A stretch of DNA of 44,346 bases from a virus. The notes beneath the pieces were generated by a model. The model saw only the letters and a list, made by a program, of their open reading frames with translations. It had not been told where the DNA came from and ran no database searches. Made by a program: the position numbers and the translations under genes. Position 1 is the stretch's first letter; every line of letters starts with the position of its first letter. Positions 4,734 to 35,468 of this stretch are shown here, piece after piece. The stretch is from IMG/VR virus record IMGVR_UViG_3300031087_000004; one strand, 5' to 3'.

Positions 4734-6891
4734 AAGGGCGAAGCCAGCGGCAAAGCCACAACCAAAGGCGGAGGATTACGGCCAATTCCGTAACCTTGCT
4801 GGGATCCTGTCTGCCGTCAAAAGAGCGCAGCGCAACCTGATCCCGCCGCCCGTCATGCTGCCCAGCGTGTGGGCTGAGAAGAATATCAAGATTCCTACCG
4901 GCAACGCCGTGCCGGGGCCGTACCGCATCCACAACGCCCCCTATCAGCGGGAGCCTATGGACATGCTGGTGCAGCCCGACTGCTACCGCGTTTCCCTGAT
5001 GTGGGGCGCGCAGGTGGGCAAAACGCTGCTGGCGCTTTGCGTGCAAGCGTATTGCATCGGGGCCAGCCCGCGCAGCCAGATGATGATGCAGCCCAGCGAA
5101 AACGATTTAGGCGTGTGGCTGGAAACGAAATTTAACCCGCTGGCGGAAGACTGCAGCGCCGTGGCTGACGCGCTGGCGCAGGGTAAAGTTGATAACAAAA
5201 AAATGAAGGGCTACCCGGGCGGCTTTATGATGTTTGCCTGGGCTGGCTCGCCTAAAACGATGCGTGGACGTTCGGCCCCGACCATTATCTGCGATGAGGT
5301 GGACGGCTACGAACGGACAAGCGAGGGGCACCCGGTTAGCCTGCTGTGGCAACGTTCGGCAACGTTCGGTGATATCCGTTTCCTGATCGATATCTCAACG
5401 CCAACCATCAAAGGGGAAAGCTACATTGAAAAATCGTTTGAAGCTGGCGATCAGCGTCGTTTCTATGTGCCTTGCCCACACTGCGAAGCGCATGTGCTGC
5501 TGGAGTGGGAGCACATACACTGGCCTGGCAGGATGGGCAGCGACGAAGAGAACATTAAAGCACTGGACGAAATGGAGCCAGAAAAGGCCCATTTCCACTG
5601 CCCGGACTGTGGCGCGCAATGGACAGACGGCCAGCGCATTGCGGCGATACGCAAAGCGGAAAGCGTAGGGGCTGGCTGGAAAGCCACCCGCCCGTTTACC
5701 GGTCACGCCAGTTACCACCTGAACGAGCTGTACAGCACATTCCGCAAGATACCGGCGATCGTGCGTGACTACATCGACAAGCTGAAAACCGACGACCTGC
5801 AGACGTTTTACAACGTATCGCTGGCGCTGACGTGGGACGAAAAAGGGGAAAGCGCAGACCCGGACAGCCTGATGGCGCGCCGCGAGATTTACAGCGAGGA
5901 TGGATCCTTTGACGTACCGGCCGGCGGCTTGTATTTAACGGCCGGAATCGACATGCAGATCGACCGTCTGGAATGTGAAGTGGTGGCGTGGGGGCTGGGC
6001 GAAGAAAGCTGGAGCCTGGGTTACTGGGTATTCTGGGGCGACCCGCTGACCGGGGATCCGTGGGATCAGCTGGACGACCTACTGGAAAGCCATTTCATCC
6101 ACGAAACCGGCGCAAAGCTGCGGATCATGGGCGCATGCCTCGATACTGGCGGTACAAACGGAATGACGTCTGCGGCCTATGCATATGCGAAGGGCCGTAC
6201 TGGCCGCCGCCTCTTTGCGATAAAAGGCGTGCCCGGATGGGGCAAAGCGGTGGCAGAGAAGCCCAGCCGCCGCCAGTCTGGTAAAGACACCCGTAAAGTG
6301 GACTTGTGGCCGATCGCGGTTGACGAAGGAAAGTTGATTGTTACGCGCCGCCTGAACAAGACGGAGGCAGGCCCGGGTTATTGCCACTTCCCGGACGATC
6401 GGCACGAAGAATGGTTTAACCAGCTGACCGCTGAAAAGATGGTCACTAAATACGTTCGCGGGCAGCCGGTTCGCGAGTGGAAAAAGCCAGACCGCGCCCG
6501 AAATGAGGCGCTGGACTGCCGCGTGTACGCTTATGCCGCCCTGAAAATTACCGCCCCCCGCCTGCTTAAGATTGCCCAGAGGCTGGGAATTGATACCACT
6601 GGCGCAGAACCAGAGCGCCGCAAGAGGCTTAAAACCGTGCCAAAAATGCCAAAATCCGAGACAGAATTGCCACAAACCGATACAGCGGTACCAGAAACGC
6701 CAGTTTTAGCGAGCTTTGCGCCAGAACCGGAGGAAAACGAACCAGTGGAGGTGGTGCAGAATGCCATCCCGCACAATGACAAACCAGCCACAACAAAGCA
6801 GAATCGACCACGCTTACAATCAAAAGCCGTAGCCGGGAAGAAGGCAAAAAAAGCCGGTGGCGGCGCTAACTGGGTGAAAGGGGGCTGGTGA
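4705..6891 (+). CDS. terL: Terminase large subunit, GpA family, with a low-complexity C-terminal extension of about 90 aa
   Basis: ggagg lies 9 nt before ATG 4705 (an alternative in-frame ATG is at 4684). Walker-like GAQVGKT. The zinc-ribbon pattern CPHCEAHVLLEWEHIHW...FHCPDCGAQW is typical of lambda gpA-type terminases. Confidence 0.9.
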   Translation: MGLTTKTKSKRAKPAAKPQPKAEDYGQFRNLAGILSAVKRAQRNLIPPPVMLPSVWAEKNIKIPTGNAVPGPYRIHNAPYQREPMDMLVQPDCYRVSLMWGAQVGKTLLALCVQAYCIGASPRSQMMMQPSENDLGVWLETKFNPLAEDCSAVADALAQGKVDNKKMKGYPGGFMMFAWAGSPKTMRGRSAPTIICDEVDGYERTSEGHPVSLLWQRSATFGDIRFLIDISTPTIKGESYIEKSFEAGDQRRFYVPCPHCEAHVLLEWEHIHWPGRMGSDEENIKALDEMEPEKAHFHCPDCGAQWTDGQRIAAIRKAESVGAGWKATRPFTGHASYHLNELYSTFRKIPAIVRDYIDKLKTDDLQTFYNVSLALTWDEKGESADPDSLMARREIYSEDGSFDVPAGGLYLTAGIDMQIDRLECEVVAWGLGEESWSLGYWVFWGDPLTGDPWDQLDDLLESHFIHETGAKLRIMGACLDTGGTNGMTSAAYAYAKGRTGRRLFAIKGVPGWGKAVAEKPSRRQSGKDTRKVDLWPIAVDEGKLIVTRRLNKTEAGPGYCHFPDDRHEEWFNQLTAEKMVTKYVRGQPVREWKKPDRARNEALDCRVYAYAALKITAPRLLKIAQRLGIDTTGAEPERRKRLKTVPKMPKSETELPQTDTAVPETPVLASFAPEPEENEPVEVVQNAIPHNDKPATTKQNRPRLQSKAVAGKKAKKAGGGANWVKGGW
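6761..6804 (+). promoter_or_regulatory. Late-region 20-bp element, copy 1 (ATGCCATCCCGCACAATGAC) plus a phased -10-like hexamer
   Basis: 20-mer at 6761-6780; ATGACA at 6776-6781; 17 nt; CAGAAT at 6799-6804. Embedded in the terL 3' extension, about 85 nt upstream of the next gene. Confidence 0.5.
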
Positions 6892-7430
6892 TGCCAGTAA
6901 CGGTTCCAAAAAACATAATCCACGGGATGCCATTCACGTGGGCGACCAATTACCGCCCGCGCGGAATCACCACCACCGGCCAGCTGGTTATCCGTGGCGG
7001 TGCAAGCCTTCTGACGCTGGGATCCGTGGTTGAAAATAACCACCTCGTTTTCCGGGCTGATGCTGACAACGCCGCAGACCTGTTACCGGGGCTTTATTTT
7101 TACCAGATGATCGCCACCACGGGCGGCGTGCCGGAAGTGCTGGAAAGTGGCCGCTTTACGGTGCAGGCCAATCTGGCGCTGGTAGGGCCGGAATTCGACG
7201 GCCTGAGCGAAAACCAAAAAGCCCTGATTGCGATTAACAAGACGCTGGCAGCGCGTGCGCAGGGTGGCGCGCCCGTTCGGTACCGAATCAACAACCGCGA
7301 GTTATACAGCGAATCAATGACCGACCTTTTAGCACTGCAAAAGCATTACCAGTTGCTGGTAAATGCCGAGCTGGCAGCAGAAGCCGGATCTGATCTGTGG
7401 AACCGCAAAATAAGGTACTCCATGAAATGA
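6891..7430 (+). CDS. gpW-like head-tail joining protein with an extra N-terminal domain
   Basis: ATG 6891 overlaps the terL stop (TGATG). The C-terminal part, QKALIAINKTLAARAQGGAPVRYRINNRELYSESMTDLLALQKHYQ, resembles lambda gpW. Its position between terL and portal matches lambda. Confidence 0.55.
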   Translation: MPVTVPKNIIHGMPFTWATNYRPRGITTTGQLVIRGGASLLTLGSVVENNHLVFRADADNAADLLPGLYFYQMIATTGGVPEVLESGRFTVQANLALVGPEFDGLSENQKALIAINKTLAARAQGGAPVRYRINNRELYSESMTDLLALQKHYQLLVNAELAAEAGSDLWNRKIRYSMK

Positions 7431-8992
7431 ATTTATTTAACTGGGGCCGCAAGGCCAAAGAGCCGGAGCAGAAAAAGCGCAGCCGAATTCCCCCACGTTT
7501 CGGCCAGCGCCTTTTCGATGCCGCGAAGCCCGATCGAATGTCGATGGAGTGGGGCAACGACCCGCTGACAGCCGACGAAATCATAGCCAAAAACTGGCAG
7601 CCGCTTGTCGCTCGCAGCCAGGAGCAGATCGCCAACAACGACTATGCGAAACACTTCGCGCGACTGGCCCGCCAGAACATCGTCGGGCAGAACGGGATCC
7701 TGTTAAACGCCCGGGCTAAGTCTGGCAAGGGTAAACTGGATAAAAGCGCCAACGACGCGATCCAGCGTGCGTGGGCTGAATTCTGCAAGCGGGAAAACAT
7801 CGACATTACCGGCAAAAAGTCGATGCGCGAATTTCAGAACCAGCTGGTAAACAGCCTGGCGAGTAGCGGCGAATTTCTCTGCAGGAAGGTTTACGGGGCC
7901 GATGCTGGGCCGTTCGGCTTTTCACTGCAGGCGATCCCAGCGCAGCGCGTGCCCATTGAAATGGTTATTGACCGCCTGAACGGCGGTACCAACTTTGTGC
8001 GGTTCGGTATTGAGTACACCCAGTATGGCAAGCCGGTGGCGTACCATTTCCGCACCCTGCTGAGCGATGCCGATCGCTACATGTACAGCGGCAAGCCTTA
8101 CGTGCGCGTACCGGCTGACGAAGTGATCCACGTTTTCCGCGAAGAAATCCCCGGCCAGCGTCGCGGGCTGCCGTGGCTGGCGACGTCGCTTTACCGCATG
8201 CGCCAGATGAACGGCATGGATCAGGCGGCTTTGGTGAACGCCCGTACCGGTGCGGCGAAGCTGGGCTGGATCTCGTTTGAAGGTGAGAGCGACGGCCCGG
8301 AATACGATGAAGACGACCCGCCAGTGGTGGATATTGAGCCAGGCGAAATGGGCATCCTGCCGAAAGGCGCGCGCGTGGAGAAATGGGATCCGCAGTACCC
8401 CAGCGGCGAGTATGCGATTTTCGTTAAAAACCAGCTGCGCGGCATCGCTGCAGGTCTGGGCGTGGCATACAACAATCTGGCGCAGGATCTGGAAGGCGTT
8501 AACTTTTCCAGTATTCGGCAGGGCACGCTGGACGAACGCGAGACGTGGAAGGATTTACAACAGTTTGTTTGTGAAGAATTCCTGCAGCCAGTATTCGACG
8601 CCTGGCTGCCGCGTGCTTTACTGGCCGGCCTGATCGTGACCGACAACGGAAAGAGCCTTAACCCGGTAACGCTGACGAAATATCAGGATATTTTGTGGCA
8701 GCCGCGCCGCTGGGCATGGATTGACCCGGTGAGCGACGTTAAAGCCAGCGTGGCGGCCAAAAACGCCATGCTTAAGTCGCCGTCTGAACTGATCCGCGAC
8801 AGCGGGCAAGACCCGGACGAAGTGGTGCAGCAGATTGCGCAGGATATCCAGTCGCAGCTTGAAACGCTTATGGCGGCTGGCCTGAGTAAGAAAAACGCGG
8901 AAAATCTGGTAATGTCTGGTTACGCCGTGGATCCCAAAATGATGCAGGAAGAGGCAACCCCGAATGAACAAACGAAACCTACTGGCGCTTAG
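7427..8992 (+). CDS. Portal protein, lambda gpB family
   Basis: ATGA overlap with the upstream stop (an alternative ATG is at 7397). 521 aa. Sits in the lambda-type position, with motifs such as ARSQEQIANNDYAKHFARLARQNIVGQNG. Confidence 0.85.
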   Translation: MNLFNWGRKAKEPEQKKRSRIPPRFGQRLFDAAKPDRMSMEWGNDPLTADEIIAKNWQPLVARSQEQIANNDYAKHFARLARQNIVGQNGILLNARAKSGKGKLDKSANDAIQRAWAEFCKRENIDITGKKSMREFQNQLVNSLASSGEFLCRKVYGADAGPFGFSLQAIPAQRVPIEMVIDRLNGGTNFVRFGIEYTQYGKPVAYHFRTLLSDADRYMYSGKPYVRVPADEVIHVFREEIPGQRRGLPWLATSLYRMRQMNGMDQAALVNARTGAAKLGWISFEGESDGPEYDEDDPPVVDIEPGEMGILPKGARVEKWDPQYPSGEYAIFVKNQLRGIAAGLGVAYNNLAQDLEGVNFSSIRQGTLDERETWKDLQQFVCEEFLQPVFDAWLPRALLAGLIVTDNGKSLNPVTLTKYQDILWQPRRWAWIDPVSDVKASVAAKNAMLKSPSELIRDSGQDPDEVVQQIAQDIQSQLETLMAAGLSKKNAENLVMSGYAVDPKMMQEEATPNEQTKPTGA

Positions 8993-11138
8993 TCTGGCCG
9001 CGATTATCGGCTGCAGCTTTACGCGAGCTGCGACGGTAGAGCAGCTGGATCTGGCCGCCGTCAACCGCGACCTGCCCGCGCAAACGCGCGACATGCAGAT
9101 CGAAAGCGTGGACAAAGAAAAACGCACGGTGCAGATCTCGTTTTCCAGTGAGCACCCAGTGCGCCGCTGGTACGGCAACGAGATTCTGGATCACAGTCCC
9201 GGCGCGGTAGACTTTACGCGGCTGGAGTCTGGCGCAGCTGCCCTGCTGGTGGATCACAACTGGCAGGATCAGGTGGGCGTTATCGAACGCGCCTGGCTGG
9301 GTGATGACCGCCGCTGTTATGCTATCGTGCGCTTTGGCAAGAGCGCCCGCGCAGACGAAATTTTTAACGATGTGATCGACAAAATCCGCACGCTGGTTAG
9401 CGTTGGCTATCAGGTACTCGAAGCCAAATTGTCAGTAGAGCGCGAGGACGGCGAAGATGACTACCTTATGACGCGCTGGCTACCATATGAAATCAGTTTC
9501 GTATCGGTACCAGCCGACCATACGGTGGGGGCTGGGCGTGCTGCCCCATTTAATGCCATCCCGCACAATGACAGCGGATCAATTCCTGTGAATAATGGCC
9601 GTCAAGGTGAAAAACCACCAGCGGCGAAACCTAAACCCGGAGCAAGAAAGATGGAAAAAGAACTGTACGATCAGAACGGTAATTTCGTTCGCGCGATCGT
9701 GGACGATAACGGCAACATTTTACGTGTACTTGCCGTTCTTCGCGCCGCTGCGCCAGCGCCTACCCAGAACAACCCAGAGCCGCAGGGCGACCAGCGCACT
9801 GCTGCGCAGGTACTGGAAGACGAGCGCACCCGCGTGCGTGAGTTAACCACTATGGGCACCAGCTACAACCTGCCTACCGAAGCCGCGCGCGCCGTCGCTG
9901 ATGGCATTACCGTTGAAGCATTCCGCGCTATCGCGCTGGACGCAATCAACCAGCGCCAGCAGCAGCAGCCAGGCACCAAAAAGCCCGCCATCCGTGGCGC
10001 AGCGTCAGCTGGTACCGGCGAACGCGGCGTACCGCTGTCTGAGATGGAAAGCCCGGAAATTGGCCTGAGCGAAGAAGACGTGCGCAACTATTCGATCTTC
10101 AACGTTGTGCGCCACCTTTCCAACCCTACCGATATGCGTCTGCGTGAAGCGGCCAGTTTTGAGCTGGAATGTTCGGAAGCAGCGCAAAAGCAAACCGGGC
10201 GTAGTGCGCAAGGCATTCTGATCCCGCAGGACGTGCTGCAGCGTTTCGGTAACGAAGCCACCGTGCGCGCGTTTAACGCAGGCGGCGCGGCTAACACCCC
10301 GACCGGAGCAGTTACCGGCGCGAATCTGGTAGCCACCAACTACATGGCATCCAGCTTTATCGACCTGCTGCGCCAGCGTACCGTTATCATGCAGCTGGCC
10401 CGCACTATGGGCGGCCTGGTGGGTAACGTCGAAATCCCGAAACAGATCGCCGGTTCGCAGGCGTACTGGATCGGTGAACACGAAGATGCGCAGGAAACCA
10501 CACCAGTGATCGGCCAGATCGGTTTGAACCCGCATACACTTGCGGCTTACACCGATATTTCTCGCCGCCTGCTGATGCAGTCTACCCCTGACGCAGAAGG
10601 CATCGTGCGCGCTGACCTGATCGCCGCTATCGGTAGCGGTATCAACGCCGCCGCTTTCTACGGTACCGGCGAAAACAACCAGCCGCTGGGCCTGTTGAAC
10701 CAGGATGGCATTAACGCGGTACCGTTCGCGAACGTTACACCGACTTATAAAGAGCTGGTGGCAATGGAATCAGCGATCGCAGCTGACGACGCCGACGTTA
10801 ACAGCATGGCCTACGTGATCAACACCGCGCAGCGTGGCGACTTCAAAACCACGCCTAAGCTGACTGGCGGATCTGACCAGGGCGTGATCTGGGAACCGGG
10901 CAACGGCCTGAACGGCTACCGTGCGGAAGTGACCAACACCATTAAAGCCGGTGATGTGTTCTTTGGTAACTTCAACGATCTGATCATCGGTATGTGGGGC
11001 GGTCTGGATCTGATTGTTGACCCGTACAGCCTGAGCAAAAAAGGTGCGCTGCGTCTGGTAGTGTTCCAGGATGTGGACTTTGCACTGCGCCGCGTGGAGT
11101 CATTCACCTACGGCCATAAAGCCGCAGTGACCCCGTAA
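8964..11138 (+). CDS. Prohead protease (S78/HK97 family) - scaffold/linker - HK97-fold major capsid protein fusion
   Basis: N-terminal part: RTVQISFSSEHPVRRWYGNEILDH...LLVDHNW.DQVGVIE...SVGYQV...EISFVSVPAD (S78 protease pattern). C-terminal part: ...FIDLLRQRTVIMQLARTM...AYTDISRRLLMQS...FYGTGENNQPLGLLN...DLIVDPYS (HK97 capsid pattern). SD ggaagagg lies before ATG 8964. Confidence 0.88.
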   Translation: MNKRNLLALSLAAIIGCSFTRAATVEQLDLAAVNRDLPAQTRDMQIESVDKEKRTVQISFSSEHPVRRWYGNEILDHSPGAVDFTRLESGAAALLVDHNWQDQVGVIERAWLGDDRRCYAIVRFGKSARADEIFNDVIDKIRTLVSVGYQVLEAKLSVEREDGEDDYLMTRWLPYEISFVSVPADHTVGAGRAAPFNAIPHNDSGSIPVNNGRQGEKPPAAKPKPGARKMEKELYDQNGNFVRAIVDDNGNILRVLAVLRAAAPAPTQNNPEPQGDQRTAAQVLEDERTRVRELTTMGTSYNLPTEAARAVADGITVEAFRAIALDAINQRQQQQPGTKKPAIRGAASAGTGERGVPLSEMESPEIGLSEEDVRNYSIFNVVRHLSNPTDMRLREAASFELECSEAAQKQTGRSAQGILIPQDVLQRFGNEATVRAFNAGGAANTPTGAVTGANLVATNYMASSFIDLLRQRTVIMQLARTMGGLVGNVEIPKQIAGSQAYWIGEHEDAQETTPVIGQIGLNPHTLAAYTDISRRLLMQSTPDAEGIVRADLIAAIGSGINAAAFYGTGENNQPLGLLNQDGINAVPFANVTPTYKELVAMESAIAADDADVNSMAYVINTAQRGDFKTTPKLTGGSDQGVIWEPGNGLNGYRAEVTNTIKAGDVFFGNFNDLIIGMWGGLDLIVDPYSLSKKGALRLVVFQDVDFALRRVESFTYGHKAAVTP
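9553..9596 (+). promoter_or_regulatory. Late-region 20-bp element, copy 2, inside the protease-capsid gene
   Basis: 20-mer at 9553-9572; ATGACA at 9568-9573; 17 nt; AATAAT at 9591-9596. Lies in the linker between the protease and scaffold/capsid parts. Confidence 0.5.
9651..11138 (+). CDS. Possible nested in-frame product (scaffold + major capsid protein) from an internal start
   Basis: In-frame ATG 9651 is preceded by GGAG (9639-9642, spacing 8). It lies about 50 nt downstream of the promoter-like copy 2. By analogy with the nested lambda C/Nu3 genes. Confidence 0.35.
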   Translation: MEKELYDQNGNFVRAIVDDNGNILRVLAVLRAAAPAPTQNNPEPQGDQRTAAQVLEDERTRVRELTTMGTSYNLPTEAARAVADGITVEAFRAIALDAINQRQQQQPGTKKPAIRGAASAGTGERGVPLSEMESPEIGLSEEDVRNYSIFNVVRHLSNPTDMRLREAASFELECSEAAQKQTGRSAQGILIPQDVLQRFGNEATVRAFNAGGAANTPTGAVTGANLVATNYMASSFIDLLRQRTVIMQLARTMGGLVGNVEIPKQIAGSQAYWIGEHEDAQETTPVIGQIGLNPHTLAAYTDISRRLLMQSTPDAEGIVRADLIAAIGSGINAAAFYGTGENNQPLGLLNQDGINAVPFANVTPTYKELVAMESAIAADDADVNSMAYVINTAQRGDFKTTPKLTGGSDQGVIWEPGNGLNGYRAEVTNTIKAGDVFFGNFNDLIIGMWGGLDLIVDPYSLSKKGALRLVVFQDVDFALRRVESFTYGHKAAVTP

Positions 11139-11151
11139 TAACCACCCCGGA

Positions 11152-11175
11152 AAGCCGCCTGCGGGCGGCTTCTTT
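11152..11175 (+). terminator. Stem-loop / weak intrinsic terminator after the capsid gene
   Basis: aagccgcc-tgcg-ggcggctt followed by cttt. Confidence 0.5.
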
Positions 11176-11197
11176 GCACTGAACTGGAGTTACAAAA

Positions 11198-11656
11198 ATG
11201 TCAAAAACTATCGTCATTGAATTAACCAGCGCCATCGTGTGGGGCGGCGTGATCCAGCCTGCCGGTACCGAAATCGAAGTCACCGAGATTGAAGCGCGTC
11301 ATTACATGACCCGTGGCAAAGCGGTGCTGGCTGAGGGTGAAGCCCTGGAGCTGGGTACCGGCCCTTTTACGACTACGGGCCAGGCTGGAAACAGTGGATC
11401 CGACGTCGTGCCGACCTCGCCTCTAAACACCGTCGATCTGTCTAAACTGACCGTGGAGCAGTTGCACGAATGGGCGAAAGCCAAATCTTTCACCGTGACC
11501 GCTACCAAAAAGGCAGACATTCAGAAAGAGTTGCAGGATCAGCTGGATCACGAAGCGTCAAAAGAGCTGAGCGATAACCAGGCCGCTGGCGTCGTACCTA
11601 ACCCGGCCCCGCTGGAGCCACTGCGCCAAGCTGATCTGAACGAGAAAAAGGAATAA
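11198..11656 (+). CDS. Hypothetical head-associated protein with a HeH/SAP-like motif
   Basis: 152 aa. LSKLTVEQLHEWAKAKSFTVTATKKADIQKELQ looks like a HeH/SAP helix-extension-helix motif. Lies directly after the capsid gene. Confidence 0.5.
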   Translation: MSKTIVIELTSAIVWGGVIQPAGTEIEVTEIEARHYMTRGKAVLAEGEALELGTGPFTTTGQAGNSGSDVVPTSPLNTVDLSKLTVEQLHEWAKAKSFTVTATKKADIQKELQDQLDHEASKELSDNQAAGVVPNPAPLEPLRQADLNEKKE

Positions 11657-11662
11657 GCCGCT

Positions 11663-12548: not shown

Positions 12549-13141
12549 TGCAAGACAACTACCCCGAAACCGATCTGGCCCTTTTCATTCAGGCCATTAT
12601 TAAAGACATTAAAGAGCGTTTCCCGTCGCTGGTGAACGTCGAATTTTTCCCGGATGAACCGGAAGCCAACACCCGCATGCCAGTGCCCGCGTGCCTGCTG
12701 GACGTGTCGGAAATGGAAGTGGATCTGGATGAAGACCCGGGCACCGGCCAGACGCCCACGCGCCTGTCTTTTTCCGCATTCCTGGTTATCAGCGGGCTGC
12801 AGGACGGCAACACGAAGCTGCAGATCAGGCTGATGGCTGCCGCGCTGGTATCGTGGCTTAAAATGCGACACTGGCGTGACCCACGCGACCCGGGCACCGA
12901 AGAAGAACCCAACCACCTGCCGAGCGACCCGGCTATGCCGGTGGGAGCGTACAGGGATGATTTCGACCCACGGCTGGATCGTTATGAGGTATGGCGCGTT
13001 GACTGGGAGCAGGTTATTTATCTGGGCAAAAGTGATTTTGATTCCAGCTTTTTGCCGTCGCGTGTCTGGCTGGGGCTGGCCCCGGACATTGGCGCGGAGC
13101 ACCGCGAAGACTACGTGGAGATCACCGGCAATGGACAGTAA
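12545..13141 (+). CDS. Hypothetical virion morphogenesis protein
   Basis: ATGA overlap with the upstream gene. 198 aa, in the morphogenesis block. Confidence 0.45.
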   Translation: MMQDNYPETDLALFIQAIIKDIKERFPSLVNVEFFPDEPEANTRMPVPACLLDVSEMEVDLDEDPGTGQTPTRLSFSAFLVISGLQDGNTKLQIRLMAAALVSWLKMRHWRDPRDPGTEEEPNHLPSDPAMPVGAYRDDFDPRLDRYEVWRVDWEQVIYLGKSDFDSSFLPSRVWLGLAPDIGAEHREDYVEITGNGQ

Positions 13142-13781
13142 CGAACTATTCCAGCGCCTCGATGGCGTGATCAAAACCGGTTATATCCGCAACGTTGACC
13201 CGGACGCTAAGCAGGTGCGCGTTGCGGTGGATGGCAACGTTACCGGCTGGATTGATTGGGGCGTCTGGCGGGCAGGGCTGCTTAAGGTCTGGAGCTGCCC
13301 GGATCGTGGCGAAAAGGTGCTGATCGCAGCACCGGCCGGCGACCTTTCGATGGCTGTCGTTTTATGCAGCCTGTACAGCGACAACGGCGGCGAATCGCCC
13401 AGCAGCGACCCGGAAGAAACTTACATCAAATTCCCGGATGGCAGCACGCTGGTTTACAACCACGGCGAAAACGAATTTAACCTGGTAGTGACCGGGCAGG
13501 GCATGGTTAAAATCACCTGCGTTTCGGCTACCGTCACGGCTACTGATTCGGTCACGCTGGACGCGCCGGAAACGCTGGTAACTGGCAACCTTACCGTTAA
13601 ACAGAAGATTACCGGGCAGGGCGGCATGGGCATAAGCGGCGGATCAGGCGGCGCGGTTGCTGACTTTGGCGGGCCGGTTCGCGTTACCGGTGGCGACGTG
13701 AAGGTGGATGGCATAGGCGTTAAATCCCACATCCACAAAGAGCAGGGCGACGGTAACGACGTCGGGCCAGCACGCGGTTAA
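13131..13781 (+). CDS. Baseplate central spike/hub protein, P2 gpV-like
   Basis: MDSNELFQRLDGVIKTGYIRNVDPDAKQVRVAVDGNVTGWIDW...GDVKVDGIGVKSHIHKEQGDG is the typical gpV/gp5 OB-fold plus C-terminal beta-helix/apex pattern. Confidence 0.8.
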   Translation: MDSNELFQRLDGVIKTGYIRNVDPDAKQVRVAVDGNVTGWIDWGVWRAGLLKVWSCPDRGEKVLIAAPAGDLSMAVVLCSLYSDNGGESPSSDPEETYIKFPDGSTLVYNHGENEFNLVVTGQGMVKITCVSATVTATDSVTLDAPETLVTGNLTVKQKITGQGGMGISGGSGGAVADFGGPVRVTGGDVKVDGIGVKSHIHKEQGDGNDVGPARG

Positions 13782-13824
13782 TGCCATCCCACACAATGAC
13801 AGGATAGAGGGCTGCAAATATGAT
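13781..13824 (+). promoter_or_regulatory. Late-region 20-bp element, copy 3 (one substitution, G to A)
   Basis: ATGCCATCCCACACAATGAC at 13781-13800; ATGACA; 17 nt; TATGAT at 13819-13824. This hexamer overlaps the gpW-like start codon at 13820. Confidence 0.4.
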
Positions 13825-14158
13825 AGGCACTGACCGAAACACGGGGAAACTGATCGCAGGGATTGACCATCTGCGCCAGTCATTTCAGGACTTACTGACA
13901 ACCCCAAAGGGCACCCGCATTATGCGGGCAGATTACGGCAGCGACCTGCCGCGCCTGGTGGATTTACCGGTTAATGGCGAACTGATTCTGGACATTATCA
14001 CCGAAACAGCGGTGGCTATTATGAACTGGGAGCCGCGATTCAAGGTGGCGACAGTCAAAGTTACGACTATCACCGAATCGCAGGTGATTTTAGCGGTTAG
14101 CGGCAAATACCTGCCGGACGGCCAGGAAATAACGATAGACGGGATCGTGGTGAAATAA
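13820..14158 (+). CDS. Baseplate wedge protein, gpW/gp25 family
   Basis: MIGTDRNTGKLIAGIDHLRQSFQDLLTTPKGTRIMRADYGS matches the P2 gpW / T4 gp25 N-terminal signature. Confidence 0.88.
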   Translation: MIGTDRNTGKLIAGIDHLRQSFQDLLTTPKGTRIMRADYGSDLPRLVDLPVNGELILDIITETAVAIMNWEPRFKVATVKVTTITESQVILAVSGKYLPDGQEITIDGIVVK

Positions 14159-15075
14159 TGGCGACTAACGGAACATTTACAGCGGTTAACCTTTCGCAGC
14201 TGCCGCCGCCGCAGGTGGTGGAGGTGCTGGACTTTGAAAAGATCGTCAGTGAAATCATTGCCGACTTCAAAGCGCGCCAGGAGGCTGCGGGCCAGCCCTA
14301 TACGTCAGTAGTTGAAGCCGACCCGGCTTACAAAATGGCACAGGCGGCAGCCTATCGCGAAATGATCGTGCGCGCCCGCGTGAACGAATCAGCCAAAGCG
14401 GTGATGCTGGCTTACGCCGTGGACGCGGATCTGGACAATATCGGGGCCAATACCGGCGTTACTCGCCTGGTGGTGCAGGAGGCAGACCCGACAACCATCC
14501 CGCCTACGCCGCGCATAATGGAGAGCAACGACGACTACCGCGCGCGCATCCAGTTGGCACCCGAAGCCTACACCACCGCAGGCAGTGAAGGTTCGTACCA
14601 GTACCACACCCGCAGCGCAAACGGCAAAATCAAAGACGCCCAGGTGCTTTCGCCCGCGCCCACGCAGGTGCTGGTCTACATTTCCAACCGTGACGGAAAC
14701 GGCGAAGCCACTATGGATATGGTGGCAGATGTGCGCGCCGCGCTGAATGCCAAAACGGTGCGGCCGCTGACGGACAAAGTTACCGTTATGAGCGCCGTAG
14801 CCGTGAATTATTCCATTTCGGCCCAGCTGCAGATCTACGACGGCCCGGATCCCAGCGTGGTTATCGCAGCTGCCCGGAAGGCGGCGCAGGCTTATGCCGA
14901 CGACCAGCGCAAAATTGGTTACGACATTACGCTGGCCGGTATCATTGCCGCGCTCAAACAACCGGGCGTGCACGACGTTAAGATGATCACCCCCACGGCA
15001 AACGTGGTGATCGGCGACGGCCAGGTGGGCTATTGCACCTCGATAACGGTTACGCAGGCGGTGCTAAATGTCTAA
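14158..15075 (+). CDS. Baseplate protein, P2 gpJ family
   Basis: 305 aa. NLSQLPPPQVVEVLDFEKIVSEIIADFKAR...ADPAYKMAQAAAYREM is the typical Baseplate_J pattern. TAATG overlap with the upstream gene. Confidence 0.88.
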   Translation: MATNGTFTAVNLSQLPPPQVVEVLDFEKIVSEIIADFKARQEAAGQPYTSVVEADPAYKMAQAAAYREMIVRARVNESAKAVMLAYAVDADLDNIGANTGVTRLVVQEADPTTIPPTPRIMESNDDYRARIQLAPEAYTTAGSEGSYQYHTRSANGKIKDAQVLSPAPTQVLVYISNRDGNGEATMDMVADVRAALNAKTVRPLTDKVTVMSAVAVNYSISAQLQIYDGPDPSVVIAAARKAAQAYADDQRKIGYDITLAGIIAALKQPGVHDVKMITPTANVVIGDGQVGYCTSITVTQAVLNV

Positions 15076-15658
15076 CGACCTGTTACCGAGTAACGCCACG
15101 CGACTGGAACGCAATCTGTCGCTGATGACCGATCGCATATTCAACGTGCCGATCATCGTTAAGCAGGTATGGAACGCCAACGAAGCCCCGGTGGATGTTT
15201 TGCCGTGGCTGGCGTGGGCGCTTTCTGTAGACGAATGGGATACCAACTGGACGGAAGATCAGAAGCGAAACGTTATCCGTGAAGCGCCGACCATCCAGAA
15301 AATCAAAGGGACGCTGGGCGCTGTGGAATTCCAGCTGGCATCTGTGGGGATCGACGTGCAGGTGCAGGAGTGGTTTAACCAGGTACCGGCAGGCGAACCG
15401 GGCACATATATTTTGCACGTCAACGTCGCGCAGTACCCGCTTAATCAACAGACGCTGCAGAAGATAATCGCGCTGATCGAAAGCAGTAAAAACATCCGTT
15501 CCCATATGTCTACCGCGAAAATAAACGTGAAGACTGAGGCGCACGGGTATGCTGCTGCAGTGAGTCGAACCGGTATGAATATCAGGGTAACGGGCACCGA
15601 AGCCACTATGGTGGTGGCAAGTGAATTCAATGTACCCAACGTAACCATTAAGCAATAA
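15068..15658 (+). CDS. Tail protein, P2 gpI family
   Basis: LLPSNATRLERNLS...VDVLPWLAWALSVDEWDTNWTEDQKRNVI is the characteristic gpI signature. Confidence 0.88.
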   Translation: MSNDLLPSNATRLERNLSLMTDRIFNVPIIVKQVWNANEAPVDVLPWLAWALSVDEWDTNWTEDQKRNVIREAPTIQKIKGTLGAVEFQLASVGIDVQVQEWFNQVPAGEPGTYILHVNVAQYPLNQQTLQKIIALIESSKNIRSHMSTAKINVKTEAHGYAAAVSRTGMNIRVTGTEATMVVASEFNVPNVTIKQ

Positions 15659-15668
15659 GGGGCAGCAC

Positions 15669-17384
15669 GTGGAATTAAAAACATTTGTGGCGCAGGACAG
15701 CACGGGATCAGTTATCCCGGGCGCTACGGCGACGTTATACGTTACGGGTACCGACCAGAAGGTGGAAGGGCTGACCGACCAGAACGATCAGCCGATCGAC
15801 AACCCGATGGTTACTGACGCCAACGGCGTGATTAAATTTAAAGCGCCAAACGGGATTTACGACCTGCAGTTTAATCTGGGGCCGTTGCCTGGCCCGCGCT
15901 ATACGTTCCAGTGTCTGGATCTGGTGGCGCAGATTGCTGCCGTGGACTATAAGGTGGCAACCGCAAGCGGGCTGGTAGACGAAGCCAAATTGATTATGGA
16001 TCGCGATATTTACGCCAGCGTCAACGCAGCACTGGCAGACCCGAACCTGCCGAATGGCGCTTATTTCCGCATCGTCGGGAATAACACCAGCGGCGCATTT
16101 CTTTACTACCGGAAAAACAGTGCATCCAGCAGCACTTCGCTGGTGGCGATCCCTACCGCGTCGCAGGTCAACGTTCTTAACAGCACGCTGGCTAACGCGG
16201 TAAATCTCGCCATGTTTAACGCGGTGATTAAGCAGGTGGATCCGATTTTCGGCGACAAAGATATTTTGTATGCGGTGCGTGATTCTGCCGGTTATCAGAC
16301 GTGGTTAGGCGTGAGCGCCGTAGACGGCGGCCCGTCTGCCTATGCGGAAAAGATGCTGCGTGATCGTTTCGGCATCCAGCAGCAAAAAAACTTTCTGGCG
16401 GCTGGCGAGGAAATTAGCTGGGCGGTGACGGATAAGAACGGCAACTTAACCGATCTGGCTATCCGCGCTATCGACGGCCAGCTGGCCCAGTACGCCGTAA
16501 ACCGTATTGGCGATCGAATCGCTGGCGGCATAAAGCAGGACGTGGCAAAGCAAATCGACCCGATGAAGATCCCACGCGACGCGCCAGGATTTCAGGTGCT
16601 GGCATCAATGAGTCGCTGGGCGGCGCAGCGTGGACGTGGCGAGAGCATTACCAGCCCGATCAACTTCACCACCCCGATCAACAATCAGAACGCGCGCCTT
16701 ACGTTTGCCAATACGCCATACAGCAACGACGGCCCCATGCTGATGATTATCTATTTTGGCGGCGTGGGCAGCGGGCCAACACTGACGCCGCCACCAGAAT
16801 ACGCCAGCCTGGCGAATGATGGCATTATCTGGGCACGCTGCAACTTTGAGGGCGACCACTACGGATCCCCAAAATGCATGGAGGACGTAGCGAACGTTTA
16901 CACCCAGGCCTGCAAGCTGGCCCCGATTGGTGGCGTGCTGCTGCTGGGCAACAGCATGGGCGGCATGGGCGCGCTGAATGCGCTGTTAACCGGCGTCGTA
17001 CCGGGCGTGCTGGGGCTTTACCTTACCGATCCTGTGTGCAACCTTTTCGACCGCTACAACAGCAGCCGCCAGGGTTTAATCCAGACCGCTTACGGCATCG
17101 CCTCCAACGGCAGCGACTACAGCACGAAAACGGCAGGTTACGACCCGGTGCTGCGCCACTGGACGGATTTTCGCGGCGCGCCGGTATATTGCATTGCGTC
17201 AACAGGCGACGACCTTGTGCCGATGGCGACCAACGCCCAGCTGCTTTACGACACGTTTAGCCAGCATGTAGACATGCAACTGGAAGTACACACCACTGCA
17301 GGGCATAACACTGCAGACCGTTTCGACCCGATCAAGCTGCGCGACTTTATCCGCAAAGTTTGTTACGGCACCATTTTGAAATAA
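15669..17384 (+). CDS. Tail fibre/spike-associated protein with a C-terminal alpha/beta-hydrolase (esterase-like) domain
   Basis: GTG start after aagggg. The C-terminal ~230 aa carry a nucleophile elbow GNSMGG (16947-16964), an Asp in STGDDLVP and a His in TTAGHNT. Lies between gpI and the gpH-like fibre. Confidence 0.7.
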   Translation: MELKTFVAQDSTGSVIPGATATLYVTGTDQKVEGLTDQNDQPIDNPMVTDANGVIKFKAPNGIYDLQFNLGPLPGPRYTFQCLDLVAQIAAVDYKVATASGLVDEAKLIMDRDIYASVNAALADPNLPNGAYFRIVGNNTSGAFLYYRKNSASSSTSLVAIPTASQVNVLNSTLANAVNLAMFNAVIKQVDPIFGDKDILYAVRDSAGYQTWLGVSAVDGGPSAYAEKMLRDRFGIQQQKNFLAAGEEISWAVTDKNGNLTDLAIRAIDGQLAQYAVNRIGDRIAGGIKQDVAKQIDPMKIPRDAPGFQVLASMSRWAAQRGRGESITSPINFTTPINNQNARLTFANTPYSNDGPMLMIIYFGGVGSGPTLTPPPEYASLANDGIIWARCNFEGDHYGSPKCMEDVANVYTQACKLAPIGGVLLLGNSMGGMGALNALLTGVVPGVLGLYLTDPVCNLFDRYNSSRQGLIQTAYGIASNGSDYSTKTAGYDPVLRHWTDFRGAPVYCIASTGDDLVPMATNAQLLYDTFSQHVDMQLEVHTTAGHNTADRFDPIKLRDFIRKVCYGTILK

Positions 17385-17397
17385 AAGAGGCAAGACG

Positions 17398-18075
17398 ATG
17401 GCAACGATTATTCAGACCGACAGCGCGATCCGTTCCCCACTGGCAAGCACACCAAAGATCGTGGCGATGGGCGACGTTTTTATTTCTGACTCATTCAACC
17501 GCGCAGGCGACCTGCAAGGCAGCAGCACCGACAGCGCGCTGGGTGGCGTGCCAACCGTATGGGGCGGCACCAACGGCAACAACAACAAAACGGTTACGGA
17601 TAACGGCGGGCAGCTGGTGCTGGCATCCACCAGCCTGTTTAGCCAGTGCGTGAATGCTGGCCGGCCAGATGTAAGCGTGAGCTTTAAACTGGTGGCAGAT
17701 ACAGCTGGCCGAGCTGCGGGACAGCAGTCAATGATCGAATTCCGAAAGGCTGCAGCCGATACCGGCGACACCCTGCGCTTAACGCTGGGTAACTACTCAA
17801 ACGCCAGCGGCGTGGCCCAGACCTTTGCGCAGCTGTACAAGCGCGTAGGCGGGGCTGCCACTGCCCTGCTTTCGCAGTTTGTAATTGTTCACGGCAACAC
17901 GATCCGCGTCGATATTAAAGGATCCACGCTGACGATTTACACAAATGATGTGTTGTTGATGACCTATCCAATCACTGATAACAGCCTGCTTACCGGCACT
18001 TTCTTTGGCTTTGCTGGTGCGTCTGGTAACAAGTCATTCACGATCAAAGACTATATGATCCGTTCAATCAACTAA
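17398..18075 (+). CDS. Hypothetical tail-associated protein, possibly a lectin/jelly-roll-like fold
   Basis: 225 aa, beta-rich and Gly/Thr/Ser-rich, located between two fibre genes. The fold assignment is a guess from composition only. Confidence 0.35.
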   Translation: MATIIQTDSAIRSPLASTPKIVAMGDVFISDSFNRAGDLQGSSTDSALGGVPTVWGGTNGNNNKTVTDNGGQLVLASTSLFSQCVNAGRPDVSVSFKLVADTAGRAAGQQSMIEFRKAAADTGDTLRLTLGNYSNASGVAQTFAQLYKRVGGAATALLSQFVIVHGNTIRVDIKGSTLTIYTNDVLLMTYPITDNSLLTGTFFGFAGASGNKSFTIKDYMIRSIN

Positions 18076-18087
18076 GGCGGCAGGGCG

Positions 18088-19764
18088 ATGGCATTTAAAA
18101 CGATCTTTACCCGCCTGGGCGCGCAACTGCTGACCCAGGCCATGAGCAGCGGGCAGGCTATCCGCTTAACGCATATGGCCGTTGGCGACGGCGCAGGCAA
18201 TCCGACCACGCCGACCACCACGCAAACCACGTTAGTGCGTGAGCGGTACCGCTCGACGATTAACCGCATCTATCAGGATCCGGCAGATAACACGAAGTTT
18301 ACTGCCGAAATGATTGTGCCAGCTGCGCAGGGTGGCTGGACGATGCGCGAGATCGGCGTATTCGACAGTAACGGCACCATGATTATGGTGGGCAACCTGG
18401 CGGAGACTTACAAACCGCTGCCGGAAGAAGGCCAGTACGGCGACGTTATTCTGGCCGTCGATTTCTTCCTGACCAGTGACGCGGTGATTAATATCAGCTT
18501 TGATCCTGACACGATCGTGGTGAACCAGACGTGGCTTGTTAATAACTGGACGGCGGCGCAGCTTATCCCGGGCGGCGTCGTCGGGCAGGTGCTGGGCAAA
18601 GAAACGAACGCCGATGGCGATTACAAATGGATCGATCCCAGCGTTGCCAACGTGACGGTGGACACCGTAGCGGAGACGCAGTTACTGAGCGCGACGCAGA
18701 CCACTGTTGATCTGCAGAAAACCACCACCTACGGGCTGGCGGTTTATGTGGCCGGTGATCGCCTGGCGATGGGATCCGGTGCTGACGAATGGCAGCCGGT
18801 GGCGAACAACCCCACGCGGATCACGCTGGGGAAAACCTACGCTGCAAACACCAAAATTCAGCTGGTGAATAACGAGCCTGCAGGCAGCGCACCGGCACCG
18901 CTGGAGCGTGCCAAAAACCTGTCTGACGTCCTGAGCGTAACCACCGCGCAAAATAACCTGCAGGTTTACAGCGGCAGCAAAGTGGAAGCACTGGGCCGCC
19001 AGTGGGCACCACCTGGCGCGGTTATGCCATTCGGACGCAGCAGCGCGCCGGTGGGCTGGCTGAAAGCCAACGGCGCAGCAGTGAGCCGCACGGCTTACCC
19101 TGAATTGTTCGCGGCTATCGGTACCACCTGGGGCGCTGGTGACGGCTTCAACACCTTTAACCTGCCAGACCTGCGCGGCGAGTTTATCCGCGGCTGGGAC
19201 GACGGGCGCGGGCTGGATGCTAACCGTATTAACGGCACCGTGCAGGGATGGGCCGTAGAGTCACACCAGCACACCGGCACCACGGCAGGCGCTGGCAACC
19301 ACCAGCATAGCGGCAGCACTGACGCGCAGGGCAACCACGCACACAGCGTAAGCGGCAGCACTGACGCGCAGGGCCAGCACGGGCATAGCGCATGGACTGA
19401 CGCGCAGGGCAACCACCAGCACGGCGTCGGGATTCGAAACCCGGCCAACTATGGCGGATCGGGTGGTTACTACGGCGTGCGAGGTTTAGGGTTAGGATCG
19501 GGCGCATGGGCGCAGGGTGGCGGCCAGACTGGCAGCGAGTCATGCACCAGTTACGACGGCAACCACGCGCATAACGTTGGTATTGGCGCAGCTGGGAACC
19601 ACGCGCATAATGTGAGCGGCAGCACCAGCGTAGCAGGCAACCACGCCCACAACTTCTGGACAACGTGGAGCGGCGATCACGGTCACAACTTCACCACCAA
19701 CGCAACCGGCAGCAACGAAACGCGCCCGCGCAACATGGCGCTGCTGTACTGCATCAAGTATTAA
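18088..19764 (+). CDS. Tail fibre protein (P2 gpH/Mu gpS-like N-terminus, tail-collar domain, HxH repeat tip)
   Basis: N-terminus: MAFKTIFTRLGAQLLTQA...IRLTHMAVGDGAG. Collar: PPGAVMPFGRSSAPVGWLKANGAAVSRTAYPELFAAIGTTWG..FNLPDLRGEFIRGWDDGRG. Then at least 9 HxH motifs (HQH, HAH, HGH). Confidence 0.88.
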   Translation: MAFKTIFTRLGAQLLTQAMSSGQAIRLTHMAVGDGAGNPTTPTTTQTTLVRERYRSTINRIYQDPADNTKFTAEMIVPAAQGGWTMREIGVFDSNGTMIMVGNLAETYKPLPEEGQYGDVILAVDFFLTSDAVINISFDPDTIVVNQTWLVNNWTAAQLIPGGVVGQVLGKETNADGDYKWIDPSVANVTVDTVAETQLLSATQTTVDLQKTTTYGLAVYVAGDRLAMGSGADEWQPVANNPTRITLGKTYAANTKIQLVNNEPAGSAPAPLERAKNLSDVLSVTTAQNNLQVYSGSKVEALGRQWAPPGAVMPFGRSSAPVGWLKANGAAVSRTAYPELFAAIGTTWGAGDGFNTFNLPDLRGEFIRGWDDGRGLDANRINGTVQGWAVESHQHTGTTAGAGNHQHSGSTDAQGNHAHSVSGSTDAQGQHGHSAWTDAQGNHQHGVGIRNPANYGGSGGYYGVRGLGLGSGAWAQGGGQTGSESCTSYDGNHAHNVGIGAAGNHAHNVSGSTSVAGNHAHNFWTTWSGDHGHNFTTNATGSNETRPRNMALLYCIKY

Positions 19765-19773
19765 GGGGCTATC

Positions 19774-20052
19774 ATGGCAGACGAAAAAAGGGTTTACCTC
19801 TACAACCAGATGGGATTTTTTACCGGCAGCAGCGTGGCTGATCCATCGCCGCTGGAATCAGGTGTTTATATTTACCCGCCGAATTCCACCGACAAAGAGC
19901 CGCCAGAGCTGAAAGAAGGCGAGGCAGCACGATGGAACGGCAGCGACTGGCAGCCCGTCCAGATTCAGATTGACGACGCGCAGGTGGCAAAAAATAAACT
20001 GATTGATTTCCTTTCCAACAATCCAGACGTCGCCGCACTGCTGAATAAATGA
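19774..20052 (+). CDS. Tail fibre assembly chaperone-like protein
   Basis: 92 aa. ...YIYPPNSTDKEPPELKEGEAARWNGSDWQPV resembles Tfa/gpG-type chaperone N-termini. Follows the fibre gene. Confidence 0.6.
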   Translation: MADEKRVYLYNQMGFFTGSSVADPSPLESGVYIYPPNSTDKEPPELKEGEAARWNGSDWQPVQIQIDDAQVAKNKLIDFLSNNPDVAALLNK

Positions 20053-20074
20053 TTTAGTTTGCTGTCGCATTTTG

Positions 20075-20099
20075 GCCCGCCTTGCGCGGGCATTTTTTT
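20075..20099 (+). terminator. Rho-independent terminator after the fibre module
   Basis: gcccgc-cttgc-gcgggc followed by a run of seven T. Confidence 0.8.
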
Positions 20100-20143
20100 A
20101 TGCCATCCCGCACAATGACTTTAAACGGGCAGCGCGGCATTAT
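20100..20143 (+). promoter_or_regulatory. Late-region 20-bp element, copy 4, directly after a terminator and upstream of the sheath gene
   Basis: ATGCCATCCCGCACAATGAC at 20100-20119; ATGACT; 17 nt; CATTAT at 20138-20143. The sheath ATG is at 20185. Confidence 0.55.
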
Positions 20144-27729: not shown

Positions 27730-27730
27730 T

Positions 27731-28547: not shown

Positions 28548-28778
28548 TCCGGCTGGATTCGACTTATCACTAACCTATCACTTTTCCAAACGCGGCTTTT
28601 CGGATATACTGCCGGAAGCCGCAGCCAGCAAGGCTTCGCGCGGATAGCTGGTTTTTATGTGCAATGCTTAGTATGAGCATTAAACATTGCGCGTTAAGAT
28701 TTTGATTTCGTTAACAATTGCAGTAAATCGACAGTAACTAAACTCAACGTAAACTATCACGCAAAAAGGCGGTAAAAA

Positions 28779-31494: not shown

Positions 31495-31516
31495 GGCCTA
31501 AATTCACGGGTGGCAA

Positions 31517-35459: not shown

Positions 35460-35468
35460 CTGACCAAT

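Follow-up and report, generated by a model that had tools for sequence, protein, structure and literature searches.

The closest described counterpart of the system considered here is the late regulon of bacteriophage Mu, in which the activator C acts at Plys, PI, PP and Pmom. More distant parallels are the late boxes of phage P2, which are TGT-N12-ACA dyads near -55 that are read by a zinc-finger protein, and the middle promoters of phage T4, whose MotA box has its centre near -30 and depends on the remodelling of sigma region 4 by AsiA. The C-dependent promoters of Mu possess -10 hexamers and lack a typical -35; they depend on 19 bp between -52 and -34, and the footprint extends from -30 to -55 (PMC2582627). 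The sites of C and Mor are imperfect dyads of 16 bp centred at -43.5 (PMC2582627), at which, according to a 2025 preprint, tetramers contact two adjacent major grooves (10.1101/2025.05.02.651988). Here we analyse a repeated box element in the IMG/VR virus record IMGVR_UViG_3300031087_000004, a stretch of DNA of 44,346 nucleotides, the whole of which is referred to below as the window. The box element is real and functional, and it is very likely that its five copies constitute the five-promoter late regulon of a Mor/C-like activator of this phage, the transcription starts, the activator dependence and the protein that binds the box all being predicted from sequence.

The 20-mer ATGCCATCCCRCACAATGAC occurs four times in the window, on the + strand only, at 6761-6780, 9553-9572, 13781-13800 (with a G-to-A change at position 11) and 20100-20119, and no further matches to it with up to three mismatches were found in the window. 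The chance expectation for this 20-mer is 0.03 matches, and four or more were reached in 0/100 shuffles, which bears out the original prediction that the recurrence is not accidental. A repeat finder returned the identical four-member family, plus a few conserved flanking bases. A fifth, weaker box, ATGCCATCCCCCACCATGCG, is found on the + strand at 1855-1874, within the 3'-terminal part of the open reading frame (ORF) of the candidate activator and ahead of the holin gene. A Hamming scan placed the 18-nt core TGCCATCCCCCACCATGC there, at 1856-1873, with 3/18 mismatches; this is the sole match of intermediate quality in the window, the next best having at least five mismatches on either strand. 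The regulon had been proposed to contain four sites, and with the addition of 1855-1874 it contains five. We number this added copy box 1, and the four copies noticed earlier become boxes 2-5. A degenerate relative that had been suggested at 27803-27821 is set aside as a chance match: it shows 7/18 mismatches without gaps and no phased hexamer, and more than 150 places in the window match equally well. When the box was scanned against the GTDB genomes (596 Gb), only two isolated matches in unrelated metagenome-assembled genomes were found, with about two expected by chance by our estimate.

The hexamers CAGAAT, AATAAT, TATGAT and CATTAT lie, as had been reported, exactly 17 nt after the ATGAC(A/T) of boxes 2-5. 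The five sites and the elements that accompany them are as follows.

1855-1874, + strand: box 1, inside the activator ORF, where it encodes D-A-I-P-H-H-A; predicted lysis/terminase promoter
1892-1897, + strand: -10-like hexamer TAATAT of box 1, at an offset of 18 rather than 19; predicted start at about 1904
6761-6780, + strand: box 2, in the non-catalytic C-terminal tail of terL at about codon 693 of 735, where it encodes N-A-I-P-H-N-D
6799-6804, + strand: -10-like hexamer CAGAAT of box 2; predicted start at about 6811, about 80 nt before the ATG at 6891
9553-9572, + strand: box 3, at about codon 197 of 724 of the capsid fusion, right after the protease domain, where it encodes N-A-I-P-H-N-D
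9591-9596, + strand: -10-like hexamer AATAAT of box 3; predicted start at about 9603
13781-13800, + strand: box 4, the G-to-A variant, beginning on the final base of the baseplate V stop codon; ahead of baseplate W
13819-13824, + strand: -10-like hexamer TATGAT of box 4; predicted start at about 13831
20075-20099, + strand: intrinsic terminator ending the fibre operon (stem 20075-20091, T-run to 20099), adjoining box 5
20100-20119, + strand: box 5, in the gap before the sheath/tube/tape-measure operon
20138-20143, + strand: -10-like hexamer CATTAT of box 5; predicted start at about 20150, giving a 5' untranslated region (UTR) of about 35 nt to the ATG at 20185

The placement of all copies at module boundaries, as first suggested, holds for boxes 4 and 5, the latter indeed starting one base after the terminator and about 35 nt upstream, by its predicted start, of the sheath ATG; boxes 2 and 3 lie inside the terL and capsid-fusion ORFs.

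The most informative evidence comes from related phages. A megablast search with 15 kb of the window against phage records gave no match, and relatives are seen at the protein level only, with a capsid fusion that is at most 57% identical to theirs. They include the Jilinvirus/Iiscvirinae (ep3, ECO1230-10, HeidiAbel, Arya), PPpW-3, MQ-4, Mano and the FoX phages. We compared the six complete relatives HeidiAbel, Arya, MQ-4, PPpW-3, Mano and FoX3, which come from at least five host genera and together with the window make up seven genomes. Positional conservation in related genomes had been set beforehand as a test of the regulon: a genome-specific box was found at the same five positions in all six relatives. 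By repeat searches and targeted reading, each of them was seen to possess its own box of 18-19 nt. The copies are confined to the + strand and are situated in the 3' end of the activator gene, in the 3' tail of terL, inside the capsid fusion, in the gap between V and W and in the gap before the sheath gene. No other copies of the respective boxes with up to two mismatches were found elsewhere in these genomes or on their - strand. The boxes are:

Window: TGCCATCCCGCACAATGA
HeidiAbel: TGACAAACCCCAAGAAGA
Arya: TGACACCCCGCACGAAGA
MQ-4: TGACAAACCCAAAGAAGA
PPpW-3: GGCAAACCCACAAGAGGA
Mano: GGAAAAsCCGCAAGAGGA
FoX3: GGAAATTCCGGACATGGA

Across the seven boxes, written as 19-mers, the invariant positions are G3, A6, C9-C10, A13 and G18-A19. 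The box sequence changes as a unit between genera and does so in a coordinated fashion within each genome. The site in the activator gene is the most degenerate of the five in most genomes: it carries one or two mismatches in five of the six complete relatives, and Arya has four clean sites and a degenerate one at this position. This first site is also present in two metagenomic contigs, namely L015, which ends within terL and in which it is the only readable site, and L017, a partial contig that spans sites 1-3 and has a Mano-like box at all three. At a shorter evolutionary distance, the 20-mer of the window is unchanged at all five sites sampled in the IMG/VR contigs L003, L005 and L006, despite an identity to the window of about 74%, and L003 even shares the G-to-A variant at the V-W site. 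An unconstrained 20-mer at this level of identity would be expected to stay intact only about 0.2% of the time (an estimate). The box is under purifying selection.

The boxes are further unified by a strictly phased hexamer. We aligned 34 sites from the seven genomes on the 3' end of the box (...GA) and searched for nAnnnT at offsets 0-44. In 31 of the 34 sites this pattern begins exactly 19 nt downstream of the box, against a genomic background of 4.3%, and at any other offset it is present in five sites or fewer. The three exceptions are one base off: in the V-W sites of HeidiAbel and Arya, CATCAT begins at +20, and in site 1 of the window TAATAT begins at +18, as does its counterpart in L015, TAAAAT. 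The consensus of the hexamer is (C/G/A)-A-n-A-(A/C)-T, and if it is taken as -12 to -7, the box would span about -50 to -31. In the window the bases at the -35 position, ATGAC(A/T), match TTGACA at 4-5 of six positions, and it had been proposed that they serve as a -35 hexamer. They are not conserved in this capacity: the corresponding bases in the relatives are AAGAAGA, AAGAGGA or ACATGGA, none of which is TTGACA-like, and the box therefore takes the place of a -35 element and does not contain one. The predicted 5' UTRs measure 13-80 nt to the next start codon.

The geometry of these sites closely recalls that of the late promoters of Mu. Both systems have several late promoters with a recognizable -10 and no -35 hexamer, and in both a box of about 19 bp lies over the -35 region (about -50 to -31 here; -52 to -34, footprinted from -30 to -55, in Mu; PMC2582627). 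In both, several copies, all oriented with transcription, stand before the lysis, head and tail operons, and a small acidic/basic protein with a C-terminal helix-turn-helix (HTH) is encoded right before the lysis genes. The host sigma-70 polymerase, which reads the promoters in Mu, is proposed to do so here. At the level of sequence, Plys (L013 2415-2430) and PI (L014 6002-6025) of Mu contain TCCCGCACCT, which has the 9-mer ATCCCGCAC in common with the box of the window and CCCGCA in common with the boxes of Arya and Mano. In Mu, however, 16-17 nt separate the shared CCCGCA element from the likely -10, as against 24 nt here, and we regard the shared 9-mer as a lead and not as evidence of homology. 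Other differences from Mu are that there are five sites rather than four, with three of them in coding sequence and in one frame, including the activator's own gene, and that the phage is not a transposing Mu-like virus, having a lambda-type terminase and portal and a P2-type tail.

The candidate activator is the 156-residue product of the gene at 1479-1949, with a C-terminal HTH at approximately residues 97-125. It matches PHROG 836 with an E-value of 3.9e-20, and in searches against Pfam it matches HTH_23 only. The Mor-like gene is kept in each of the seven genomes, where it immediately precedes the first box and the lysis genes; of the candidate regulators tested, no other is conserved in every genome. 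An alignment of the family, drawn from the relatives and from metagenomes, shows a W-x-D-A...F-G-G-E-x-L-x-P...C...R block followed by the HTH. Within this block F74-G75-G76-E77...P81 are conserved in the family and align with the GGxQxYIP linker of Mor and C. The homologue from FoX3 scores 30.7 bits against the Pfam Mor family (PF08765; cut-off 24.9), that from PPpW-3 scores 20.3 bits, and this family is matched by 5 of 13 aligned members. The depositors of the Mano record also noted an HHpred match to Mor (1RR7). Membership of the window's activator in the Mor/C family appears to be supported transitively only: the label 'Mor/C-like' first attached to it stands by way of the FoX3 homologue, which passes the Pfam Mor threshold, and does not stand for the window protein itself, which matches only a generic HTH model. 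An AlphaFold2 (AF2) model of the protein (pLDDT 78) falls below 50 from residue 128 onwards, indicating a disordered C-terminal tail, part of which is encoded by the DNA of box 1. The activator of L017 is 45% identical to that of the window. The recognition helices of the family fall into the following groups:

YRTISRW: window and L015
ERTV(K/S)RH: HeidiAbel, Arya and MQ-4
DRHIKNL / DVHVRKL: Mano and L017
DRQVRNI: FoX3
VTGVRAI: PPpW-3

These groups match the groups of box sequences, a congruence that is inseparable from shared ancestry.

Two observations concern the activator genes themselves. The FoX3 'late transcriptional activator' (L012 42189-42596) is annotated as a protein of 82 amino acids, and in a tblastn search the window protein aligns with it over 137 residues from 42189; the deposited start is probably too far downstream. 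In the window, an alternating purine-pyrimidine tract that is prone to form Z-DNA, CGTGTGTGTGCGCGTGTGTGCGCGTGTGCGTG, occupies 1197-1228, within the gap of about 500 nt that separates the primase terminator (1016-1033) from the activator gene. Sigma-70-like sites at 1344-1371 and 1420-1447, located between the tract and the gene, may be the activator's own (middle) promoter.

Taken together, these findings suggest that the five boxes are the upstream halves of late promoters read by the host sigma-70 RNA polymerase. Each promoter would combine a weak -10 of the form (C/G/A)A-n-A-(A/C)T, no usable -35 and an 18-20-bp box at about -50 to -31. The box would be bound by the Mor/C-like HTH protein encoded at 1479-1949, which would recruit or activate the polymerase in the manner of Mu C at its four promoters. 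Promoter 1 is predicted to drive the holins, endolysin, spanin and terminase; promoter 2 the head-tail joining protein, portal and protease; promoter 3 a nested scaffold-capsid gene, the head and tail completion genes and V; promoter 4 the baseplate and fibre genes; and promoter 5 the sheath, tube, tape measure and remaining tail genes. The original prediction that the sites are the regulon of the 1479-1949 protein is thereby upheld in its core by comparative evidence (positions, phasing, conservation, terminator and conserved gene), and amended in the number of sites.

Several points weigh against this interpretation. The literature searched contains no transcript 5' ends, binding data or expression data for the phage or its relatives. 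The nominal binomial P for the phasing of the hexamer, 3e-39, overstates independence, as the sites are homologous. The window's activator has no match to Pfam Mor PF08765 at E <= 1, and in a profile-profile comparison by hhalign with the two aligned sequences of Mor and C, the linker and HTH came out in the expected register with a probability of only 5%. A Foldseek search of its AF2 model against the PDB gave no hit at E <= 0.001, with Mu C (9l0x_I) at 1.4 and Mor (1rr7) at 1.6. Phmmer and profile searches with the activator against PDB sequences did not retrieve Mor or C, the profile search giving only generic HTH proteins. A search of the seven aligned boxes for conserved dyad symmetry, such as the sites of Mu C and Mor have, found none common to them. 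Finally, the -10 hexamer of box 4 overlaps the start of gpW in the window, and this site cannot express gpW.

Some of these points speak for the alternative that survives best, though we consider it improbable: that these are late promoters read by another DNA-binding protein of the phage, or that the 156-residue protein acts as a surrogate of sigma region 4, in the manner of T4 MotA/AsiA, and not as a Mor/C-type oligomer on a dyad. In keeping with this, the box is asymmetric and its invariant positions form no dyad, there being only partial, lineage-specific symmetries or direct repeats within the boxes, in contrast to the imperfect dyads of Mu. Moreover, 11 of the 13 family members weakly match Sigma70_r4_2 (best E-value 5e-5), and the structural likeness to Mor and C is not significant. 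The middle promoters of T4 resemble the sites described here in having an asymmetric box in place of the -35, ahead of a normal -10; the analogy is purely mechanistic, and no MotA or AsiA homologue was identified here. On the other hand, the homologue from FoX3 lies above the Pfam Mor threshold, the FGGE..P linker lines up with the GG..YIP linker of Mor and C, as do the respective HTHs, and the position of the gene mirrors that of C before lys in Mu. As for other DNA-binding proteins, an Ogr-like zinc finger is present in MQ-4 only: this Serratia phage alone carries an Ogr/Delta-like zinc-finger gene (L010 25115-25357), in addition to the Mor-like activator and five boxes, and its Ogr-like protein had no tblastn match in the window or in the other five relatives.

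Still less probable, in our estimation, is that the boxes are sigma-70 promoters that need no assistance, with ATGAC(A/T) as the -35, the phased hexamer as the -10 and the upstream part UP-like or incidental. A sigma-70 scan of the window does list boxes 2-4 as ATGACA-17-CAGAAT, AATAAT and TATGAT, with 9-10 of 12 matches at a spacing of 17 nt, and box 5, with 8 of 12 matches by our count, falls under the listing threshold of the scan. However, the AAGAAGA, AAGAGGA and ACATGGA of the relatives are not -35-like, though the phasing of the -10 is kept. The 20-bp block is 100% conserved against a background of 74%, far beyond what a -35 hexamer needs, and the box changes as a unit between genera. 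Unassisted promoters would leave the strongly selected 20-bp block and the missing -35 of the relatives unaccounted for.

We think it very unlikely that the element acts at another level altogether, in RNA processing or antitermination, as a recombination or module boundary, as a parS-like partition site, or as a peptide motif. Two facts speak for such roles. The relatives encode ParB-like proteins, and the coding copies of the box, 20 in the seven genomes, all share one codon phase and specify x-P-x-x-(D/E)-like peptides (N-A-I-P-H-N-D, D-K-P-Q-E-E, E-I-P-D-M-E and others) in the disordered tail or in linkers. Yet two of the five sites are non-coding, and the coding copies most plausibly reflect three ancient insertions of the box into coding stretches able to tolerate it rather than a function in the peptide. 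A partition or recombination site is disfavoured by a box that is not palindromic and is strictly oriented, and the phased -10 has no part in any of the roles named here. At the RNA level, the sheath site lies right behind a terminator and would be poorly represented in read-through RNA, and the reading as an RNA element was rejected in view of the lack of an Rfam match, folding z-scores of -0.9 to +0.5, which give no signal, and pairing that is inconsistent between the sites.

Two further candidates were rejected. Promoters for a T7-like phage RNA polymerase are set aside, as the window has no ORF of more than 760 amino acids and no polymerase family was found in the ORFs scanned; of the three ORFs of more than 700 amino acids, two are terL and the capsid fusion, and the third, which was not scanned against a protein-family library, lies at the position of the tape measure. 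Regulation of the P2 Ogr or P4 Delta type shows a parallel in the expression of P2-type tail genes from several activator-dependent late promoters without a -35, and differs in that no Ogr/Delta Pfam domain was found in the ten unassigned window ORFs scanned.

Returning to the five promoters of the proposed Mor/C-like regulon, their individual contexts are informative as well. A GC-rich terminator with a T-run precedes the sheath box by 0-6 nt in six of the seven genomes (the window and five of the six relatives), and the predicted 5' UTR of the sheath transcript is 32-41 nt. The 5' UTRs predicted for the activator-gene site and the terL site are 13-35 nt, leading to the holin, and 41-80 nt, leading to the head-tail joining gene, respectively. 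In the window the holin ATG at 1936 is preceded by the Shine-Dalgarno sequence GGGGAAAGG, about 30 nt past the TAATAT at 1892-1897. A palindrome, TGTGTGCACACA / TGTGTACACA, is seen in the predicted sheath 5' UTR of L008 (about 16478-16492), L007 (about 13985-13997) and L010 (about 17345-17357), and downstream of the box in L005 and L006; it is absent from the window, and could be an operator or an RNA hairpin.

At site 3, all seven genomes and L017 have an in-frame ATG 30-51 nt past the predicted start. It is preceded by a Shine-Dalgarno-like sequence (weak in FoX3), and it opens a conserved N-terminus, M-x-K-x-L-R-D-A-x-G-N-L-V-R-A. In the window the candidate gene is:

9651-11138, + strand: nested scaffold-capsid gene, with GGAG at 9639-9642 and its ATG at 9651, 48 nt past the predicted start of box 3

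The internal Shine-Dalgarno sequence and the conserved in-frame ATG together imply a nested scaffold-capsid gene with its own late promoter, which would permit the synthesis of much more capsid than protease from one fused ORF. An in-frame start inside a head protease gene that yields a shorter, scaffold-type product is familiar from Mu I/Z, the Mu record annotating Z as 'start site internal to gene I'. Phage lambda C/Nu3 provides a second nested protease/scaffold example. The present case differs from both in that the ORF runs on into the capsid protein, as a protease-scaffold-capsid fusion, and in that an activator-dependent promoter of its own seems to lie 30-51 nt before the internal start in all relatives.

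The V-W site shows a different specialization. In the six relatives the ATG of gpW lies 6-7 nt after the hexamer and lacks a Shine-Dalgarno sequence (L007 9483-9520; L008 9551-9590; L009 9720-9756; MQ-4, L010 9613-9650; L011 9584-9620; FoX3, L012 10662-10697). As this ATG sits where transcription should start, the gpW mRNA is probably leaderless in these phages. For PPpW-3 and Mano, the gpW start is annotated at 9744 and at GTG 9601, probably in error; the homologous ATGs lie at 9753 and 9616, respectively. The hexamer and gpW ATG of the relatives are enclosed in a GC-rich inverted repeat, such as CATGCGGGC-ATCAT-TGCCCGCATG in HeidiAbel, which would hide the ATG on read-through transcripts. 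In the window and L003, the gpW ATG (13820 in the window, in the stretch 13808-13824) falls within the hexamer TATGAT and has a GAGGG Shine-Dalgarno sequence upstream, and in this lineage the distance from the box to the gpW ATG is 12-13 nt shorter than in the relatives. With the ATG inside the hexamer, gpW of the window lineage would therefore be translated from read-through transcripts, and box 4 would serve the downstream J, I and fibre genes.

The window itself appears to be a complete genome. Its bases 1-127 are an exact direct repeat of 44220-44346. This terminal repeat of 127 bp most likely represents the overlap in a genome that is circular or was assembled as a circle, which makes the window a closed phage genome of some 44.2 kb. 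A primase-like ORF (41-979) spans the junction of the repeat. The recognizable genes are all on the + strand:

1479-1949, + strand: candidate late activator gene, PHROG 836 'late transcriptional activator', 156 aa
from the ATG at 1936 on, + strand: two holins (the first PHROG 2359), endolysin and spanin
4194-4733, + strand: terS
4684-6891, + strand: terL, lambda-type, 735 codons, with the Pfam nuclease domain reaching up to residue 624
from the ATG at 6891, after terL, + strand: head-tail joining gene
after the head-tail joining gene, + strand: portal, lambda-type
8964-11138, + strand: protease-scaffold-capsid fusion, 724 codons (protease residues 50-185, capsid residues 417-723)
between the capsid fusion and baseplate V, + strand: head and tail completion genes
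12876-13781, + strand: baseplate V
13820-14158, + strand: baseplate W (gpW)
after baseplate W, + strand: J, I and fibres
20185-21609, + strand: sheath
after the sheath, + strand: tube, tape measure and other tail genes
after the tail genes, + strand: integrase, recombination and replication genes, two methyltransferases and primase

The region 26698-44219 encodes, all on the + strand, an integrase, exonuclease VIII, an excisionase-like protein, a single-stranded DNA-binding protein (SSB), a helicase, two DNA methyltransferases and a primase. In the sequenced relatives, unlike in the window, the recombination, SSB and repressor genes form a block on the opposite strand. Of the window ORFs scanned, none was identified as a cI-like repressor. 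Imperfect tandem repeats of 36-42 nt at 19275-19427 and 19615-19651, within a fibre-like ORF of 558 amino acids (18088-19764), code for a periodic His/Gly-rich segment.

Full-text searches on these phages turned up no account of the boxes, which go unmentioned in the FoX, Murka, Mano, Arya and BASEL papers (the PPpW-3 genome paper being outside that coverage), and the BASEL paper describes the phage group as 'not well characterized'. The regulon, its activator and the boundaries of the operons can now be predicted in annotation, and corrections are suggested for the nested scaffold-capsid gene, for the gpW starts in PPpW-3 and Mano and for the truncated call of the FoX3 activator. Several phages of these groups are candidates for phage therapy or biocontrol. 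The naturally diverged pairs of activator and box could serve as orthogonal promoter parts, and could reveal how Mor/C-type proteins recognize asymmetric sites.

We view the box regulon as a well-supported and fairly ordinary kind of phage gene switch, which extends the Mu paradigm and overturns nothing. Three features may go beyond that paradigm, as far as comparison of the genomes suggests: promoters that lie within ORFs in a single frame, a nested scaffold-capsid gene driven by its own promoter, and, in the relatives, a gpW that is probably leaderless. The joint reading, in which a regulon partly encoded in proteins is combined with a separately transcribed nested scaffold-capsid gene, a leaderless W in the relatives and a box that is read unlike the symmetric site of a Mor/C oligomer, is tentative and, taken as a whole, rather unlikely. 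If it is true, the C-terminal tail of the activator, the tail of terL and the linker between protease and capsid would all encode the box in one conserved frame; with the box embedded in three ORFs, each change in the specificity of the activator would therefore have rewritten three proteins and two intergenic sites together. The promoter-driven nested gene would, in that case, set the ratio of protease to capsid. For these poorly characterized small myoviruses, comprising Jilinvirus/Iiscvirinae, Hiroshimavirus, Manovirus, Foxunavirus and the unclassified lineage of the window, the five predicted promoters would provide the first testable transcription map.

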